From the NCBI GenBank assembly GCA_919902045.1, contig CAKKSP010000041.1:1-60740 (forward strand): 60,740 bases of DNA. Reading direction: 5' to 3'. The position numbers and the translations under genes are program-made. This document shows positions 2,904 through 51,526 of the stretch, piece after piece. The notes under the pieces were generated by a model that worked only from the letters and a program-made list of their open reading frames with translations, was not told the origin of the DNA and ran no database searches. This DNA comes from Omnitrophica bacterium GWA2_41_15. GTDB lineage: Bacteria > Omnitrophota > Gorgyraeia > Gygaellales > Profunditerraquicolaceae. Positions within the stretch are counted from its first letter, which is position 1. Each line of letters begins with the position of its first letter.

Positions 2904-3425
2904 ATGAAGATTCTAAGCCTAAGAGAAAAACGGATTCTTTGGGTGGTAGTAGGTTTATTGGCAGTCGGCCTTCCGGCGCAGATATTAGTTTTTCCGCTTC
3001 TTGAAAGCCACCGCGATCTTGATAAAAAAATCCTTGCTGCTCAAATTAAAGCGAATAAATATGAACGCCTGATACAGCGTAAAGATGCCTTGCAAAAGAA
3101 ATACCAGGCGATTTCCTTTGTTTTAAAAAATTCATCCGGAGCCCAGGAAACAATTGTTGAGGGCTTAAGTGAGCTTGAGTCATTGGCAAGAGAAAGCGGG
3201 ATTAGAATTTTAGATATCCGTCCGCAACTTTTAAAAAAAGACAGCTCTATTAAAGAGACGGGGATTGAGCTTAAGGCCGCAGCTAATATGGAAGGTTTTA
3301 TCCGTTTTATCTATAAAGTCGAGCGCTCGCTCACTTTATTTAAAATAAAGAAAATCCAACTTACCACCAAACCCGGCTCGCCCATGCTTGAAGGCTCCTT
3401 TAGTATCGCCCGCCTCGCGCTTTAA
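2904..3425 (+). CDS. PilO/GspM-like protein
   Basis: LSLREKR N-terminus, TM, coiled coil, LARESGI; follows the PilMN-like gene. Confidence 0.75.
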   Translation: MKILSLREKRILWVVVGLLAVGLPAQILVFPLLESHRDLDKKILAAQIKANKYERLIQRKDALQKKYQAISFVLKNSSGAQETIVEGLSELESLARESGIRILDIRPQLLKKDSSIKETGIELKAAANMEGFIRFIYKVERSLTLFKIKKIQLTTKPGSPMLEGSFSIARLAL

Positions 3426-3436
3426 ATAGATTAGAA

Positions 3437-3523
3437 TAAATTAGGGACAGACACCTATTTTTTTGAAAAGAACTCAAAAATAGAAAATTGTAAAATAGAA
3501 AATAGGTGTCTGTCCCTAATTTA
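3437..3523. mobile_element. Non-autonomous 87-bp element (MITE/REPIN-like) with perfect 25-bp inverted repeats
   Basis: TAAATTAGGGACAGACACCTATTTT (3437-3461) and its exact reverse complement (3499-3523); identical to the arms around the RAYT gene at 37698-38460. Confidence 0.85.
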
Positions 3524-3580
3524 ACATCACCATACCAAATACCAATCAGTAAGCGCTCACCAATTTTTTTAAAAAAAATC

Positions 3581-3608
3581 TTGACAAGTTTCGGGATTTG
3601 TTTATAAT
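3581..3608 (+). promoter_or_regulatory. sigma70 promoter of groESL
   Basis: TTGACA 3581-3586, 16 bp, TATAAT 3603-3608. Confidence 0.85.
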
Positions 3609-3634
3609 TGGCACTCTGCGGGTGAGAGTGCTAA
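3608..3634 (+). promoter_or_regulatory. CIRCE element (HrcA operator)
   Basis: TTGGCACTC-N9-GAGTGCTAA, one mismatch to TTAGCACTC-N9-GAGTGCTAA, directly upstream of groES. Confidence 0.95.
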
Positions 3635-3663
3635 GATACAACCTATTTAAGGAGGTGTGGGGA

Positions 3664-5650: not shown

Positions 5651-5708
5651 AAACTAGGGGACGCTTCTGGGGTTTTGAAGAAAAAACTACCGAAGCGTCC
5701 CCTAGTTT
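5651..5708 (+). terminator. 17-bp inverted repeat after groEL followed by a T-run; likely terminator, related to the TAGGGGACG palindrome family
   Basis: AAACTAGGGGACGCTTC (5651-5667) / GAAGCGTCCCCTAGTTT (5692-5708). Confidence 0.65.
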
Positions 5709-5714
5709 TTTATC

Positions 5715-12193: not shown

Positions 12194-12279
12194 ATTAGTG
12201 ACATTTTTTAACGTTAGGGACATCTCTTAACAAGTAATTTGCCTGTCAAGAGATGTCCCTAAAGTAAAAGTGTCCCTAA
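12191..12279. repeat. Nested inverted repeats with TAGGGACA core
   Basis: Inner perfect TTAGGGACATCTCTT (12214-12228) / AAGAGATGTCCCTAA (12248-12262); outer imperfect TAAATTAGTGACATTTTT / AAAAGTGTCCCTAA. Confidence 0.8.
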
Positions 12280-37190: not shown

Positions 37191-37696
37191 TCCATATATT
37201 AAAAAACAGAATATTAAAAGGAATCGTAACCAGGCATATAGATCTGGGATTACCGATAGAAATAAATGCCGCAGGTTCTGAATTAAAAATTTTAATTCAG
37301 AAAAGATTTGGCAGGTCTTTAAATATCCGAGAAGTTGACACCGGATCATGCGGCGCTTGCGAATCGGAGATAATTTCGGCAAATAACCCGATATATGATT
37401 TGCAGCGGTTTGGGATAAATTTTGTCGCTTCACCCCGGCATGCCGATGCGCTTTTGGTCACTGGCCCGGTATCTAAAAATATGTTGATTGCTTTAAAGAA
37501 AACCTATGATGCAATGCCTGAGCCAAAATTTGTCATTACCTGCGGAGATTGCGCTTTAGACGGAGGCCCGTTCAAAGATTCTTATTATGTTGAGAAGAAA
37601 GTTAAAGATATAATCCCCGTAGTGCTTCATATCCCCGGTTGTCCCCCAAGCCCGACAAACATAATCCAATCCCTGCTCTCATTTCTAATAAATTAG
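37187..37696 (+). CDS. Ehr small subunit (NuoB/HyfI-like, one 4Fe-4S cluster)
   Basis: GSCGACE, SPRHAD, GDCA, PGCPP. Confidence 0.9.
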   Translation: MIHILKNRILKGIVTRHIDLGLPIEINAAGSELKILIQKRFGRSLNIREVDTGSCGACESEIISANNPIYDLQRFGINFVASPRHADALLVTGPVSKNMLIALKKTYDAMPEPKFVITCGDCALDGGPFKDSYYVEKKVKDIIPVVLHIPGCPPSPTNIIQSLLSFLIN

Positions 37697-37723
37697 GTAA
37701 ATTAGGGACAGACACCTATTTTA

Positions 37724-37752
37724 TTGACATGCTGCTTTCTTCATGATAGCAT
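37724..37752 (+). promoter_or_regulatory. sigma70 promoter of the RAYT gene (probably leaderless)
   Basis: TTGACA-17 bp-TAGCAT with TG extension; ATG 6 nt later; no SD. Confidence 0.6.
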
Positions 37753-37758
37753 TGTTTC

Positions 37759-38442
37759 ATGCCACGTATAGCCAGATTAGTTGTTCCAGGATATCCCCAC
37801 CATATTACTCAGCGAGGTAACTATCGTCAGAATATATTTAGTGATGATACCGATAGAAGGCGTTACCTCAATCTTGTAGCTGATTATAGCCAGAAATTCC
37901 GCCTCAAGCTGTTGGCCTATTGCCTCATGGATAACCACGTTCATTTTATTGTTATGCCGGATAGCGAAGAATCTATTGCAGATACATTTCATATTGTGCA
38001 TACCGTATATTCGCAGTACTTCAATAAGAAAAATAGCGTTACAGGCCATCTTTTGCAAGGTAGGTACTATTCTTGTGTGTTGGATGAGCGGCATCTCTTG
38101 GCAGCGGCCAGATACGTAGAGCGCAATCCTGTAAGGGTCAAGACGGTTAAAGATCCCACAGGTTATATATGGTCAAGTGCGAGAGGCCACGCTGCTGTTT
38201 CAAATCACGATATAATAAACACCGATTCTTTGTTTGACTATATCGAAATCAAACAAAACAAATGGAAAGATTTCATTAATCAAAGCGATGATCCGGATGA
38301 AGTATCGGTTATTCGTAAATGCACAGCAAGCGGTAGGCCATTAGGAAATAATATATTTGTACAAAAACTCGAGAAGATATCCGGTCAAATATTACATGCG
38401 TTGCCGGTTGGCAGGCCAAAGAAGCTAAGTAGTAAAAAATAG
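37759..38442 (+). CDS. REP-associated tyrosine transposase (RAYT; IS200/IS605 Y1 HUH superfamily)
   Basis: MPRIAR...HHITQRGN, YCLMDNHVH (HUH), GHLLQGRY, RYVERNPVR, Y.WSS. Confidence 0.93.
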   Translation: MPRIARLVVPGYPHHITQRGNYRQNIFSDDTDRRRYLNLVADYSQKFRLKLLAYCLMDNHVHFIVMPDSEESIADTFHIVHTVYSQYFNKKNSVTGHLLQGRYYSCVLDERHLLAAARYVERNPVRVKTVKDPTGYIWSSARGHAAVSNHDIINTDSLFDYIEIKQNKWKDFINQSDDPDEVSVIRKCTASGRPLGNNIFVQKLEKISGQILHALPVGRPKKLSSKK

Positions 38443-38493
38443 GTGTCTGTCCCTAATTTAGTAATTTATGGGGCAAGCTGTATACTAAAGATA

Positions 38494-38522
38494 TTGACAG
38501 GGTGGAATTACTGTGCTAGAAT
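38494..38522 (+). promoter_or_regulatory. sigma70 promoter upstream of the PilZ gene
   Basis: TTGACA-17 bp-TAGAAT with TG extension. Confidence 0.7.
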
Positions 38523-38530
38523 TCGTGTCG

Positions 38531-38869
38531 ATGAGAAATTTTGAGCCGGATCAGCGCAGGCAGACACGTTTTAAATTGGAAACACCGGTTAGTTTTCAAG
38601 TCCGGGGAAGGCCTGAGTTTGTAACGACCCTAACCTCGGATATCAGCAATAACGGCTTAGGTTTTGATTCCGACGCTTTTATCCCCAATAATACCCTCAT
38701 TATGCTTGAGGTTCCGGTATTGGCGAAAGTAATACATCCTGTAGGCAGGATTGCATGGTCAGCTTCGATGGTGCATTCTGATCGTTACAGGATAGGGGTT
38801 GAATTTATGGAAATGGATCCCGCAGAAAAGCATTATCTGAAAGATTATCTTTCATTAAAAGAGCAATAA
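38531..38869 (+). CDS. PilZ-domain protein
   Basis: QRRQTRF (RxxxR), DISNNG, GVEF; start at ATG 38531. Confidence 0.88.
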   Translation: MRNFEPDQRRQTRFKLETPVSFQVRGRPEFVTTLTSDISNNGLGFDSDAFIPNNTLIMLEVPVLAKVIHPVGRIAWSASMVHSDRYRIGVEFMEMDPAEKHYLKDYLSLKEQ

Positions 38870-43500: not shown

Positions 43501-45433
43501 ATTATTCCTCCAGTTTTTCTTAGTTTTATTACTCCTTGCTGTAATAGTAACGTTAGTTACTAATTTCATTCTGTTCTCTAATCGCGAGGAAATCCTTAAA
43601 CTTAATAATGAATCGGGGTCTGTTATCAATGCCAAAAACATTTGGTATATCCCGCCGTACTTTTTAAGCTTACAGGGGCTGATAGTAATAGAAAAAGACG
43701 GGCCATATCCGTTTCTTAAGGCCGGAATTATCACTGCCAGGTTTTCTTTAAAAGATCTTTTTATTAAGCGTAAATTGACTTTACTTAAAATCCGCGCTTC
43801 AGAGTTAAATCTGGATTTCCCGCGTTTGCGTAAATTCCTTAAGGATAATTACCGCCAATCACTGGATTTTATAAGCCTTTTACCTAAAGTGGAAAAGGCT
43901 ATTTTCGAATTTCCTAAGATACGATTTGATAAATTTTCAGGCAACAATAACCTGAACGCTAATTTTAAGTTTTGGATTGACGGAGATTTAGTCCGCGGGG
44001 AAGGTAAATTTCAGAGTGATGGCCTGCTGTTTATTAATCAGCCTACTGAGTTTATAGGGCAGGGGAGATTTATCCAATCGGGTATGGCTATCGAGAGTTT
44101 TGAGCTTTTTCAGGAAAATGCTTATCTTAAACTATGGGGAGATTGGAGCGCCCAGGAGCTCTCTTTACAGGGTTTTTCTTTTCTTAATGATTTCTTTGCT
44201 CCTTTAAAAAATACTCCCGAAAAAAAAGAGCCTCCGGCTAACTTATTCTCCCGGATCGGGCTGATGTGGCGGAGCAAACCCGTGTCTCCGTCGCTAATAG
44301 AGCTCTCTAAGGATGATTTGAATATATTTGATATCAACGCTAAAATCCGCTTAAGTTTCCCGGAAGTCAAAATAAGGCAGCTTAATTTTTCTTTGAATAA
44401 TATCCCGGTTCAATCAAACGGAAGCATTTGGTTAATTCCTCAGCCTTCAATGCAGCTTTATTTTTCCAGTAAAAATATCAATTCTTCCCTTGCTGGTACT
44501 ATCAAGGATTCAGCTTTTAATGGAGCACTTGAAGTGTTAATTGATAACGATGATTCTGAGGTTAAGTCCCAGGAGAAAGTAAAAATTACTACGGATAGGT
44601 TCTCTTTTTCACTTAAAGAGTGGCCTTATTTGAAATTCCGTTTTGATCAGGGTGATTTTTATTATAGCTCCGATAATAAAAATTACGAGATTGCATTAAA
44701 TGATCTCAAAAGTAGCTTATTTTTGGGTAACAGGCGATATAAAACTCTGCAATTCGAAGGTAATTGCGCCGGTGGAGAAATTAAGGGTGAGGGAAAAATT
44801 GATACTGCTTATTTTCCTTTTCGGTCTAATTTTGATGTTAAACTTGAAGGCCAGTCAGCGCAAGCGCTATCAAATGCGGTTGAGTATTTTAAAAAAGTTG
44901 AAGGCGGGGTTTCTACAACATTTACTTATTCTAATTATCCGGAGCATAATCTGGATGGGGCGCTTCAGTTGTCAAAAGGCGTGCTGAATAAACTTGATTT
45001 TTTTCAATGGTTAGGCGATCAGTTTGCTTTGCCTTCTTTAGAAAAGCTGAATTACGACACATTTTCTTTAGCTTATAAAATCACTCCGGAAGGGGTTTTT
45101 TTGAATGATATTGATTTAAAGGCGGATAAGGTAAAGCTTTCAGGTAAGTACGGATTAAGAAAAGATAATTTTGTTTCTAGTAGGGTGACATTAACCATGG
45201 ATAGGGAGTTACTAGAAGAATCAGATAAATTTACTAAGTTGCTTAATTTAGTAGGTCAAGATTTAAAAGTATTTGATTTTGATTTTCAGATTTCCGGGCC
45301 TCTTGAGACAATGAACTTTCAATGGAAAGAATCGGAGTTTAAAAATAAGCTTAAGCATTCAATTCCGGGGTTTATAGAGCGGCGGATTGAGAAAAATGTA
45401 GAAGAGGCAATTGCCTCGATTGTAGCAAAGTAA
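43469..45433 (+). CDS. AsmA-like protein
   Basis: N-terminal TM, beta-strand-rich body, C-terminal FQISGPL. Confidence 0.55.
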   Translation: MARFWSKSPTKLFLQFFLVLLLLAVIVTLVTNFILFSNREEILKLNNESGSVINAKNIWYIPPYFLSLQGLIVIEKDGPYPFLKAGIITARFSLKDLFIKRKLTLLKIRASELNLDFPRLRKFLKDNYRQSLDFISLLPKVEKAIFEFPKIRFDKFSGNNNLNANFKFWIDGDLVRGEGKFQSDGLLFINQPTEFIGQGRFIQSGMAIESFELFQENAYLKLWGDWSAQELSLQGFSFLNDFFAPLKNTPEKKEPPANLFSRIGLMWRSKPVSPSLIELSKDDLNIFDINAKIRLSFPEVKIRQLNFSLNNIPVQSNGSIWLIPQPSMQLYFSSKNINSSLAGTIKDSAFNGALEVLIDNDDSEVKSQEKVKITTDRFSFSLKEWPYLKFRFDQGDFYYSSDNKNYEIALNDLKSSLFLGNRRYKTLQFEGNCAGGEIKGEGKIDTAYFPFRSNFDVKLEGQSAQALSNAVEYFKKVEGGVSTTFTYSNYPEHNLDGALQLSKGVLNKLDFFQWLGDQFALPSLEKLNYDTFSLAYKITPEGVFLNDIDLKADKVKLSGKYGLRKDNFVSSRVTLTMDRELLEESDKFTKLLNLVGQDLKVFDFDFQISGPLETMNFQWKESEFKNKLKHSIPGFIERRIEKNVEEAIASIVAK

Positions 45434-45486
45434 TATTCTTTGTAAAATGAATTGAAAGTTTTTACTATTAAAACACTGAGGGAAAA

Positions 45487-47721
45487 ATGAAAAGAATACT
45501 TATATTTATTCTGCCGATTCTGATAATTGTTACTTTGGGCTTTACTGTTTTTGGCGTTATTCAAGCCCGATTTACCGAAGACCGGCTTATGGATGATCTC
45601 AAGCGTAAAGCTAAGACCGTTGACGAAAGCCTAGAGTTATCTGCTAAGTTTATACTTTTAAATAATGATTTAAAGTCCGCTAACCGATTAGTCGAAAATT
45701 TCCAAAAAAGAGAACGGTTCCAAGGATGTGTTATATACGATAAAAACGGCCAAATCATTGCCATTACCGAGCGTTTTTCTGATTGGAAGAATAAAGAAAA
45801 AATGTATCTTGAAGACATCTTAACGGCTAAAATTCCGCGCGGTGCTTTAGAGAAATTTAAAGATTATTCGGTTTATAGCTATATTATCCCCGTGCTTGAT
45901 GACGACAATAACATATTGGGCCTGGTTGAGGTAATATATGATACTTCATATCTTTTTAATGCCCTGACAGAGCTTTGGCGCAGGATAAGCGTCACTTTGA
46001 TTACCCTTATTTTTCTTATAACTTTAGTTACTTTTTTAATTCAAAGGCAGATCTTTATCCTTCCTGTTCGCCGATTAACCAAATGGTTTGGGCATTTTCA
46101 GCGGGGAGAAACCGATAAATTACGCCCTTTTGAAGAAAAAGGGGAATTCGGAAAACTTGTTAGCGAGGTGGAGCAGGTTGCTTTGAGTTTAAGGGTTGCA
46201 AGGAAGGTGGTTTCTGATGAGGCACAGGTACGTATTAAGAAAGACGAATTATGGACTGAGTCAAAATTAAGAGATCTTGTGCATGCAAAACTGGGAGAAA
46301 ATGCGTTGGTCGTTGTTTCTAACAGAGAACCCTATATGCACATTATACAGGAATCAACCGGGAAGCCTAAATGTGTGCGGCCTGCAAGCGGGGTAGTTAC
46401 GGCAATAGATCCGATCTTGCGCGCTTGTGGAGGGACTTGGGTTGCGCACGGAAGCGCTGCCGCTGATAGAAGTTTTGTAAATTCAAAAGATAAACTTGGA
46501 GTGCCTCCGGAAGATAATCGCTATATACTAAAAAGAGTCTGGCTGTCAAAAGAAGAGGAGGAAGGTTATTATTACGGTTTTGCAAACGAAGGCTTGTGGC
46601 CATTGTGTCATGTAACTCATACTCGTCCAATATTTAGAGAATCTGACTGGCAGATGTATAAAAAAGTAAATCATAAATTTGCCCAGAGTGTTTTGGATGA
46701 GCTTCCCGTGAAGAATCCTTTTGTGTTTATTCAGGATTATCATTTTACCTTGCTTCCTAAAATAATTAAAGAAAAGCGGCCGGATGCGATAATCGCGCTT
46801 TTTTGGCATATCCCTTGGCCGAATCCAGAAGTATTTGCTATATGTCCGTATCATCTTGAGATTTTAGACGGGATGCTTGGATGCGACCTGATCGGGTTTC
46901 ATGTGCAGAATCACTGTAATAATTTTCTTGATACCGCTAATAGGTTGATCGAGTGCCGGGTAGATACGGAAAAATTCAGCGTGGTAAGCAAAAATAAAGA
47001 AACATTTATCAGGTCTTTTCCTATAAGTGTTAATACTCCTGCAGTAAGCGGAAAATCAAAATTAGCCGCGGAAGAAATAAACAAAATTAAAAATGAGTAT
47101 GATCTGCAAGATAAAATTATAGGAGTAGGTGTTGAAAGGATTGATTACACCAAAGGGATTATCGAACGCATTATGGCAATTGATAGATTTCTTGAGAAAT
47201 ATCCCGAATATAGAAAAAAGTTTGTATTTATACAGTTAGCCGCGCCCAGCAGAACTCATATAAAGCGTTATCATGAACTGATGGGGGAGATCGATGAATT
47301 AGTGGAAAAGAAGAACTGGAAATATTCTGAGGGAAGCTGGAAGCCGATTATATATCTAAAACGCCACTTTTCTCCGGAAGAGATTGAACCGTATTATGCG
47401 CTGGCAGATTTTTGTGTGGTTAGTTCGTTGCATGACGGCATGAATCTGGTAGCAAAAGAATATGTTGCATCAAAAACTGATGCCAGTGGCGCATTGATCC
47501 TAAGTAAATTTACCGGAGCAGCTAGAGAGTTAACAGACGCAGTATTGATAAATCCCTATTCCATTGAAGAATTTGCTGATGCGATAAAATTCACTGTCGA
47601 TATGCCTATTGATGAAAAAAGAAAGCGTATGGAAAATATGCGCAAGGCCGTTACCGAAAATAATGTCTATAAATGGGCAGGGAATATTATTACCGAACTT
47701 ACTGCGCTGAAAAAAACGTAA
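45487..47721 (+). CDS. otsA: Trehalose-6-phosphate synthase with N-terminal TM-sensor-TM-HAMP module
   Basis: VVSNREP, LWPLCH, QDYH, FWHIPWP, RIDYTKG, DGMNLVAKEY; first ~260 aa have two TMs and a HAMP-like PVRRL...GEFGKL. Confidence 0.92.
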   Translation: MKRILIFILPILIIVTLGFTVFGVIQARFTEDRLMDDLKRKAKTVDESLELSAKFILLNNDLKSANRLVENFQKRERFQGCVIYDKNGQIIAITERFSDWKNKEKMYLEDILTAKIPRGALEKFKDYSVYSYIIPVLDDDNNILGLVEVIYDTSYLFNALTELWRRISVTLITLIFLITLVTFLIQRQIFILPVRRLTKWFGHFQRGETDKLRPFEEKGEFGKLVSEVEQVALSLRVARKVVSDEAQVRIKKDELWTESKLRDLVHAKLGENALVVVSNREPYMHIIQESTGKPKCVRPASGVVTAIDPILRACGGTWVAHGSAAADRSFVNSKDKLGVPPEDNRYILKRVWLSKEEEEGYYYGFANEGLWPLCHVTHTRPIFRESDWQMYKKVNHKFAQSVLDELPVKNPFVFIQDYHFTLLPKIIKEKRPDAIIALFWHIPWPNPEVFAICPYHLEILDGMLGCDLIGFHVQNHCNNFLDTANRLIECRVDTEKFSVVSKNKETFIRSFPISVNTPAVSGKSKLAAEEINKIKNEYDLQDKIIGVGVERIDYTKGIIERIMAIDRFLEKYPEYRKKFVFIQLAAPSRTHIKRYHELMGEIDELVEKKNWKYSEGSWKPIIYLKRHFSPEEIEPYYALADFCVVSSLHDGMNLVAKEYVASKTDASGALILSKFTGAARELTDAVLINPYSIEEFADAIKFTVDMPIDEKRKRMENMRKAVTENNVYKWAGNIITELTALKKT

Positions 47722-51134: not shown

Positions 51135-51437
51135 ATGCTACTTTCCGGTTTCAACCCTAACGCGCGTTGGGATAGGAATATCGAAGGCGCCTACGATGAC
51201 CCTGATAAGCTTAAGGCAAAAATCCAGGTGCTTGCTTTTTTTAGCGGGGCTAAAGTATATCCGCGTATTTTTATGATGAGCGGAAAGCGCTACCGGATCA
51301 GGAAACTCAATTACACCTGGCAAAAGCGCCAAGGTAGCGAGCTCATCAGTTGTTTTTCAGTCAGCACTGCCTGCGATATATACCAACTTTCTTTCAATCA
51401 CTCTTCTTGTGCCTGGAAATTAGATAATATATTTTAG
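51135..51437 (+). CDS. Hypothetical protein between lexA and dinB
   Basis: 100-aa ORF; P..F...G.RY.I....W and terminal W.L pattern. Confidence 0.7.
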   Translation: MLLSGFNPNARWDRNIEGAYDDPDKLKAKIQVLAFFSGAKVYPRIFMMSGKRYRIRKLNYTWQKRQGSELISCFSVSTACDIYQLSFNHSSCAWKLDNIF

Positions 51438-51481
51438 GGACACTTTTTGAAATTTAATTTTCATGTTAAAAAGTGTCCCTA
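51435..51481. repeat. 14-bp inverted repeat with TAGGGACA core
   Basis: TAGGGACACTTTTT (51435-51448) / AAAAAGTGTCCCTA (51468-51481). Confidence 0.8.
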
Positions 51482-51526
51482 TTTGTCACTTGTAACTTGT
51501 CACGTGGTAACCAGTTAATTTTTTAT

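Follow-up and report, generated by a model that had tools for sequence, protein, structure and literature searches.

The repeat-bracketed transposase gene

We analyzed a 60,740-nt stretch of DNA from Omnitrophica bacterium GWA2_41_15 (contig CAKKSP010000041.1 of assembly GCA_919902045.1; the whole stretch is called 'the window' below). It contains a gene for a Y1 (HUH-type) single-stranded DNA (ssDNA) nuclease/transposase that resembles the transposases associated with repetitive extragenic palindromes (REPs), known as RAYTs. The gene is bracketed by perfect 25-bp inverted repeats, 713 nt apart, and an identical pair of repeats with no gene between them lies 34 kb away. We call the repeats arms and the gene-less pair the doublet; the gene with its arms belongs very probably to the TIRtrons, in which a RAYT-like (TIRYT) gene lies between long terminal inverted repeats (TIRs). 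The features of the locus are listed below.

37689..37697, + strand: truncated tandem repeat of the left arm's outer 9 nt (TAAATTAGG), read from the sequence
37698..37722, + strand: left TIR (arm), with a AGGGACAG core that agrees with the published GGGGWSAS at 7/8 positions
37724..37752, + strand: sigma-70-like promoter TTGACA-17-TAGCAT; a TG precedes the -10 box, and the site lies two bases beyond the left arm
37759..38442, + strand: gene for the TIRYT/RAYT-like HUH-Y1 ssDNA nuclease/transposase, 227 aa, recognized by Pfam Y1_Tnp and motif residues
38436..38460, - strand: right TIR (arm), exact reverse complement of the left arm
38462..38468, - strand: TAATTTA, a partial repeat of the right arm's outer end, one base past the arm
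3437..3523, no strand assigned: gene-less inverted doublet (REPIN-like TIR dimer), two identical arms, 87 bp

The 25-mer TAAATTAGGGACAGACACCTATTTT was found without mismatches at 3437-3461 (+), 3499-3523 (-), 37698-37722 (+) and 38436-38460 (-). A search of the window with up to three mismatches gave no further match, and none of 100 shuffled controls had any. A count in the window's own assembly (G000; 1,144,951 bases in 51 contigs, 82% complete) with up to four mismatches gave no copies besides these four, which stand in two inverted pairs. Thus, the perfect repeats around the gene and the identical gene-less pair, both reported in a preliminary description made from the sequence alone, are real. 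So are three details of that description: the promoter adjoining the left arm, the stop codon TAG (38440-38442) within the right arm, which overlaps the last two codons of the gene as well, and the partial arm duplications at both ends. The tetranucleotide GTAG is absent from the arms; the foot is TTAG.

The genes flanking the element code for a NuoB-like protein (upstream) and a PilZ protein (downstream), with no adjoining tnpB gene; the stop codon of the NuoB-like gene (37694-37696) falls within the left partial duplication. The doublet sits between a PilO-like gene, ending at 3425, and groES. Its spacer (3462-3498) has the 37-nt length given earlier; what had been taken for an A-rich filler is non-random, as the arm's inner 7-mer recurs in it in degenerate tandem copies (AAAATAG at 3477-3483, AAAATTG at 3484-3490 and AAAATAG at 3492-3498), with the arm following directly.

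The -10 box is just 6 nt away from the ATG and a Shine-Dalgarno sequence is absent (window 37752-37761); because of these two features the transposase mRNA is probably leaderless.

Homologous loci with the same architecture

A search for homologues in 41 genomes, comprising the window's own and 40 relatives of the same family and the same order, gave matches in 27, with a best non-self identity of 50%. A broader scan with one genome per species produced 202 relatives, of which 80 were kept, with identities up to 72%; by the titles of their metagenome-assembled genomes (MAGs) the hosts of the 80 include Omnitrophota, Planctomycetes, Nitrospirae, Elusimicrobia and others. One locus (L106) had too short a flank to be tested. 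Among the 79 testable loci, 63 had an inverted-repeat bracket scoring above the maximum of 237 shuffled controls. GGGACAG was present in 48 of these 63, while GGGGWSAS was matched by at least 7/8 positions in 51 of the 63 TIR pairs and strictly in 13.

The position of the arms is conserved too. In most homologous loci 33-44 nt lie between the end of the left arm and the ATG, with a mode at 37-40 (36 nt in the window), and in many loci TTGACA follows this arm directly; such spacing fits a conserved promoter of the leaderless type. The right arm is located at the stop codon or overlaps it, and the arms are 678-914 nt apart. In a comparison of six elements whose proteins are 51-72% identical, sequence similarity begins and ends at the arms, and ~18-22 arm columns are invariant.

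Within the same genome, paralogues carry their own arms and doublets. The window's assembly has seven different Y1_Tnp genes, on contigs C14, C17, C32 (two), C41, C43 and C50; the six others code for proteins of 163-379 aa, 23-36% identical to that of the window, some with their own arms and some without obvious repeats.

In addition, the NuoB-like gene has an orthologue in another genus that is followed immediately downstream by a different, short-type RAYT-like gene on the opposite strand (L040; G006:C5, ~44900-45990), 38% identical over 141 aligned residues.

The encoded protein

The 227-aa product matches Pfam Y1_Tnp with an E-value of 1.6e-15. In an alignment of 44 of the more than 80 homologues (L077 was left out on account of an in-frame stop) the features of the HUH/Y1 superfamily, the HUH metal-binding motif (H60-V61-H62) and the single catalytic Tyr (Y119), are invariant in 44/44, as is N123. 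A phmmer search with the single protein sequence against solved structures gave no match and a profile was needed. With a profile of this alignment the best structure was E. coli TnpA_REP (4ER8; E 9.6e-7), while the IS200, IS608 and ISDra2 transposases ranked below it (E 6e-4 to 6e-3). The HUH, Tyr and Asn residues align with H59/H61, Y115 and N119 of 4ER8, in the numbering of PMC3479197.

The C-terminal ~100 residues are also conserved (WSSA..H, W169, TGRPLG..F..LE and GRPKK). No Pfam family was assigned to this extension in any of the 44 homologues, and for the C-terminus of the window's protein Pfam gave nothing at E-values up to 10. A Protein Atlas search with residues 125-227 returned just unnamed clusters and proteins bearing Y1_Tnp.

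Folding of the arms and of the doublet

The window's arm is laid out as AAATTAGG-GACAGACA-CCTATTTT, with 4 bp (TAGG/CCTA), a T.T mismatch and three A-T pairs around the loop GACAGACA. A single arm folds with an energy of -1.4 or -1.1 kcal/mol (z about -2). The doublet as ssDNA is predicted to form a hairpin with a 25-bp stem, at -25.1 and -25.3 kcal/mol (z about -10). In Rfam the doublet had only sub-threshold matches, to generic hairpins (miRNA precursors), and the gene locus had none.

We then considered arms of the homologous loci. A MAFFT alignment of 124 arms was ungapped and left the 3' stem halves misaligned where loop lengths differ; for this reason self-pairing was assessed with a script in which loop borders may vary and controls are optimized in the same way (it ignores bulges and undercounts stems such as AAAT-A-GG/CC-ATTT). 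The set excludes L132 and L133 altogether, as neither of their arms had an anchor, and one arm each of L100 (left) and L129 (right), as mis-anchored or short. The mean perfect stem around the GACAG loop was 4.0 bp. When 3' halves were dealt among the arms the mean was 3.48 +/- 0.13 bp (maximum 3.86), so that none of 500 permutations reached 4.0; shuffling within arms gave 2.47 bp. Kinship among the arm sequences can inflate such tests, and the existence of distinct stem types is the stronger argument. Stems of at least 6 bp, of compensating types, occurred in 35 of the 124 arms; the types include AAATAG/CTATTT, AAGTAGG/CCTACTT, AAATTAG/CTAATTT, AAAGG/CCTTT, AATAGGGG/CCCCTATT and AAATGG/CCATTT.

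The arms are REP-like imperfect palindromes, weak in the window's copy. The earlier statement that the arms are not hairpins is correct as to the weak folding of the window's arm (-1.4 kcal/mol) and fails as a general rule, given the imperfect palindrome and the compensating stems of its homologues.

Spread of arm families and evidence of mobility

Among 151 genomes of the order, 39 contain the pattern TAGGGACAG-N3-5-CTATTT; the reversed-pattern control gave 0-1 matches per genome. One relative (G013) has 46 copies, counted from the listing: 17 short +/- doublets, which hold 34 of the 46 arms, one gene-bracketing pair and 10 singles. The genomes of the closest homologues carry few arms of the window's subtype (one to three in G174, G176 and G178; none that matches the pattern in G175; several in G177).

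The window's genome is unusually rich in hairpin doublets. Two further arm families, which go with other Y1 paralogues, are far commoner there than the window's arms, with 25 and 114 matches, and some of their doublets lie in the window. An inverted doublet with CTAGGGGACGCTTC-type arms is found directly after groEL (window 5652-5712); this family flanks the Y1 gene of contig C17 and has 25 genome matches at up to one mismatch, mostly as +/- pairs. A doublet of the AGGGACACTT-type family lies at 51434-51482, with singles near 12266 and 52672; this family, tied to the Y1 genes of contig C32, has 114 matches at up to one mismatch in the 1.14-Mb assembly. Two more inverted doublets of the assembly (C33:5449-5502 and C20:41875-41925) have TAGGGACAG/GGGGACAG heads, different tails and 5-6 mismatches to the window's arm; they are diverged members or sister families.

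Mobility of the family is supported by an orthologous intergenic site of a related genus, g24 (loci L170-L190, orthologues of G107:C21:13366-14823; 21 loci, with 20 readable and L184 reading N at the site). Among the 20 readable loci, the site was empty (19-21 nt) in seven. Doublets were present in 11 loci and represented at least five different arm families: doublets of the TAGGGACAG type in three (G107, G090 and G099) and of other GGGGAC-type families in eight. Two loci had a RAYT gene of ~600 bp with flanking repeats, and a gap of ~600 bp was present there in five more genomes. We take this as direct comparative evidence that doublets and RAYT units have been gained or lost and that they favor the same spot, a hot spot.

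Four of 15 public runs, all in the form of contigs, were compared with the window. In two of the four, three small low-depth contigs carried both of the window's arms, with 19-25 other letters in between and different flanks. These contigs are further doublets in those communities, from the unassembled part of the organism or from its relatives.

The preliminary description had taken the complete identity of the arms as a sign of recent activity. This argument does not hold: since the arm core is invariant among elements whose proteins are 51-72% identical, perfect identity of arms reflects constraint and cannot date activity, and no contig representing an empty site appeared in the four runs. 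That the window's copy is still active would be an inference.

Classification of the locus

RAYT-like genes with long TIRs that replace the GTAG REPs were described as TIRYTs, and the whole units as TIRtrons, by Di Nocera, De Gregorio and Rocco (2013, BMC Genomics 14:522; PMC3733652); PMC6006769 covers this kind of unit as well. In the passages of that paper used here, four TIRYT groups are distinguished; GGGGWSAS is given for the majority of TIRs, not for all; and the TIRs lie at similar distances from the genes, sometimes overlapping gene ends, and recur as singles, dimers and groups. The locus in the window is alike in that its RAYT-like HUH/Y1 gene is flanked by long TIRs, not by GTAG REP hairpins, in the GGGGWSAS-like core (AGGGACAG), the fixed distance between TIR and gene, the overlap at the 3' end, the presence of a dimer elsewhere (3437-3523) and the low-to-moderate copy number. 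It differs in the motif, of which 7/8 positions agree, in having a single extra dimer in its genome, and in its host, an uncultivated lineage with small genomes that was probably unsampled in 2013.

With these features taken together, it is highly likely that the locus is a TIRtron, with a single-copy TIRYT gene, its own promoter and two 25-bp TIRs serving as recognition sites, and that the 87-bp element is its gene-less, REPIN-like dimer. The arrangement has been known since 2013 and is common; the window has a clean example of it, not a new type of element. The idea of an enzyme-bearing unit with a non-autonomous partner, put forward in the preliminary description, stands: there is a Y1/HUH RAYT-like gene with inverted-repeat ends and a gene-less inverted pair. 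Its premise, that RAYT substrates are short self-palindromes and Y1 elements have no TIRs, is out of date in light of PMC3733652 and of Bertels and Rainey (2011; PMC3116915).

The latter paper, in the part used here, proposes that the unit of replication in RAYT systems is the inverted doublet (REPIN); a REPIN consists of two inverted repeats and a spacer, is predicted to form a hairpin in ssDNA and is over-represented in comparison with singlets. As in the REPIN-RAYT systems of PMC3116915 and PMC5581495 (both as far as used here), the window has a single-copy Y1 gene flanked by its own repeats, and each paralogue has a repeat family of its own. The inverted repeats and spacer at 3437-3523 likewise fold at -25 kcal/mol (z about -10), and doublets far outnumber singlets in relatives such as G013. 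The differences are that the arms have neither the GTAG foot nor a G+C-rich REP palindrome, that a single arm folds weakly, and that the protein falls under the NCBIfam cut-off for the RAYT equivalog. A canonical REP, as defined in the section used of Quentin et al. (2018; PMC6006769), has a 5' GT[AG]G foot and a G+C-rich imperfect hairpin of at least 7 bp; the window's arm differs from the repeats of a canonical RAYT/REPtron in its TTAG foot and its A/T-rich stem of 4+3 bp, at -1.4 kcal/mol.

Among solved structures, E. coli TnpA_REP 4ER8 (Messing et al. 2012; PMC3479197, as far as used here) is the best relative, with HUH, Tyr and Asn aligned. The alignment covers residues ~40-142; the ~100-aa C-terminal extension of the window's protein is different, and so is the DNA site, A/T-rich with a GGGACAG core and not GTAG with a G+C-rich stem. 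With IS200/IS605 elements (IS608, ISDra2) the locus shares the Pfam Y1_Tnp fold family and, presumably, the single-strand 'peel and paste' chemistry. It differs from them in weaker matches (structure E-values of 6e-4 to 6e-3; 21 bits with the NCBIfam IS200 model, for which the cut-off is 55), in being single-copy and without tnpB, and in having TIRs in place of unlike subterminal hairpins.

A number of observations weigh against classifying the locus as a TIRtron. The score of the protein with the NCBIfam RAYT equivalog (REP_Tyr_transpos) is 60.9 bits, below the cut-off of 80; since it falls under this cut-off and under that of the IS200 model, the protein is RAYT-like, yet neither a canonical RayT nor an IS200 transposase. 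According to the section used of PMC6006769, TnpA-Y1 subclass 2.1 is characterized by a C-terminal domain resembling a helix-turn-helix (HTH), namely Bac_DnaA_C, HTH_23 or HTH_28; none of these profiles was found in the 44 homologues at a Pfam E-value of 0.1 or less, in a profile search that could miss a distant HTH. The window's motif agrees with GGGGWSAS at 7/8 positions and not at 8/8. Only two arm loci were found in the 82%-complete assembly. The passages used of PMC3733652 report no biochemical assay of any TIRYT.

Other unfavorable points concern movement. Three of the four runs, all from different studies, have contigs that run across one arm of this same filled site. No contig in the four runs joined 37697 to 38461, as an empty site would, though contigs drop rare variants and rare excision would be invisible. 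Other genera have orthologues of the upstream genes but have lost the downstream synteny: a PilZ gene follows the NuoB-like gene in 0/16 cases, and groES/groEL follow the PilO-like gene in 0/19. As the downstream gene is not kept in relatives of other genera, the window's two loci allow no empty-site comparison, and neither the contigs of the four runs nor the synteny gave a sign of movement of the window's own copy. In the doublets of G013 the arms are identical while the spacers are unrelated and variable, with 46-61 bp between outer TAGGG ends. The unrelated spacers are not accounted for by simple copying of one master doublet. In this respect they differ from the REPINs described in PMC3116915 and PMC5581495, in the parts used, which keep a fixed spacing; neither the length nor the sequence of the spacer is conserved in G013.

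Alternative explanations

It is possible, if unlikely, that the system has been domesticated and is immobile, the enzyme and a few arms having been kept for a host function such as hairpin-dependent ending or stabilization of transcripts or the structuring of the genome; under this reading, the doublet that separates the PilO-like gene from groES would be a fixed regulatory hairpin. The low number of arms in the window's genome (four) and with the closest homologues (G174, G176 and G178), the filled site bridged by contigs of different studies, the location of both copies at operon ends and a conservation of arms far exceeding that of the protein would all agree with domestication, and host roles have been reported for REPs (abstract of PMC3733652). 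On the other hand, no terminator-like site was called in 37600-38600 (the scan excluded the doublet region), the doublet hairpin is not flanked by T-runs and the catalytic residues are intact; moreover, relatives gain and lose doublets of the same family and have up to 46 copies.

We see as rather doubtful the explanation that the locus is an autonomous insertion sequence (IS), in which the whole 763-bp unit of arms and gene transposes in the manner of IS200/IS605, the 87-bp element being its miniature inverted-repeat element (MITE), as the preliminary description would have it if taken literally. The conserved unit does end exactly at the arms in six genomic contexts, and at one orthologous site of g24 a RAYT gene with flanking repeats is present or absent; however, that insert is of the short, hairpin-flanked type and not of the 227-aa type. 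The closest homologues (72%, 72% and 67% identical) come from MAGs whose titles name Omnitrophota or other phyla; the best match among the 40 genomes of the same family and order has 50%. This fits horizontal spread, which depends here on unverified phylum labels taken from record titles. An autonomous IS is further disfavored by the single copy of the unit in a genome whose seven Y1 genes are all different, the missing tnpB neighbor, the low IS200 score (21 against a cut-off of 55 bits) and the fact that TnpA_REP is the nearer solved relative. According to the literature (PMC5581495 and PMC6006769, in the parts used), a REPtron does not transpose as a unit, and RAYTs occur in single copy with mostly vertical inheritance.

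Chance similarity or an assembly artefact has next to no probability and was rejected: contigs from other runs do tend to break near the arms, as at repeats, yet there are four perfect 25-mers against none expected, independent contigs from other runs span each junction of arm and flank, and the same anatomy recurs at 63/79 homologous loci.

As a find, the TIRtron of the window matters little, being one more clean case in a lineage full of them. Its value is as material: an intact enzyme comes with four identical arms and a natural 87-nt hairpin, a minimal and fully defined set of substrates. The comparative analysis adds the compensating stem variants, the recurrent end duplications and the g24 hot spot, which lead to testable predictions on recognition and cleavage.

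Truncated end duplications and a possible mechanism

A truncated tandem copy of the outer end was found just upstream of 20 of the 124 homologous arms, against 1.05 expected; the loci include L064, L067, L069, L086, L102, L103, L104, L125 and L129. The left arm of the window's gene unit, where TAAATTAGG directly precedes TAAATTAGGGACAG, is one of the 20. TAATTTA past the right arm is a weaker copy, under the threshold of the duplication script. By reading of the listing, ~9 of the 20 truncated copies end right before GAC, and at L067 the inverted-repeat match extends through the duplicated part on both arms.

At the inner end, the tandem AAAATAG-like 7-mers in the spacer of the window's doublet are a similar case. 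All these duplications may be footprints of cutting and rejoining, or else iterated half-sites for protein binding. That the staggered truncated copies record the cut-and-rejoin chemistry of the enzyme is a speculation to which we give a low chance. If it were true, the copies would mark the point of cleavage and joining at the border of stem and loop, after TAGG; the (A/T/G)TAG beside the core would be a guide-like foot, comparable with the GTAG of E. coli REPs; and every insertion would generate a new doublet with an unrelated loop, in place of a copy of a master. The duplications would then offer the first sequence-level handle on the workings of the TIRYT enzymes.

A mechanism can be drawn by analogy with E. 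coli TnpA_REP and IS200/IS605; both the chemistry and the cleavage position are inferred. The enzyme would bind an arm on transiently single-stranded DNA, the arm having a conserved (A/T/G)TAG 'foot' beside the GGGACAG core and a weak stem closed by CCTATTT. It would cut by means of Y119 with the metal bound by the HUH motif, form a 5'-phosphotyrosine link and rejoin the strands. Inverted arm pairs may fold into a long hairpin, which would be the unit excised and reinserted in trans.

Other observations

Two inverted double GGGACAGTCCC repeat units at G000:C2:2763-3520 bracket ~700 bp with no obvious gene; this stretch includes a segment rich in G+C, with a long inverted repeat closing it.

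Upstream of groES (window 3570-3640) we saw a promoter-like TTGACA...TATAAT and an inverted repeat, TTGGCACTC-N9-GAGTGCTAA. This repeat resembles the heat-shock operator CIRCE in appearance.

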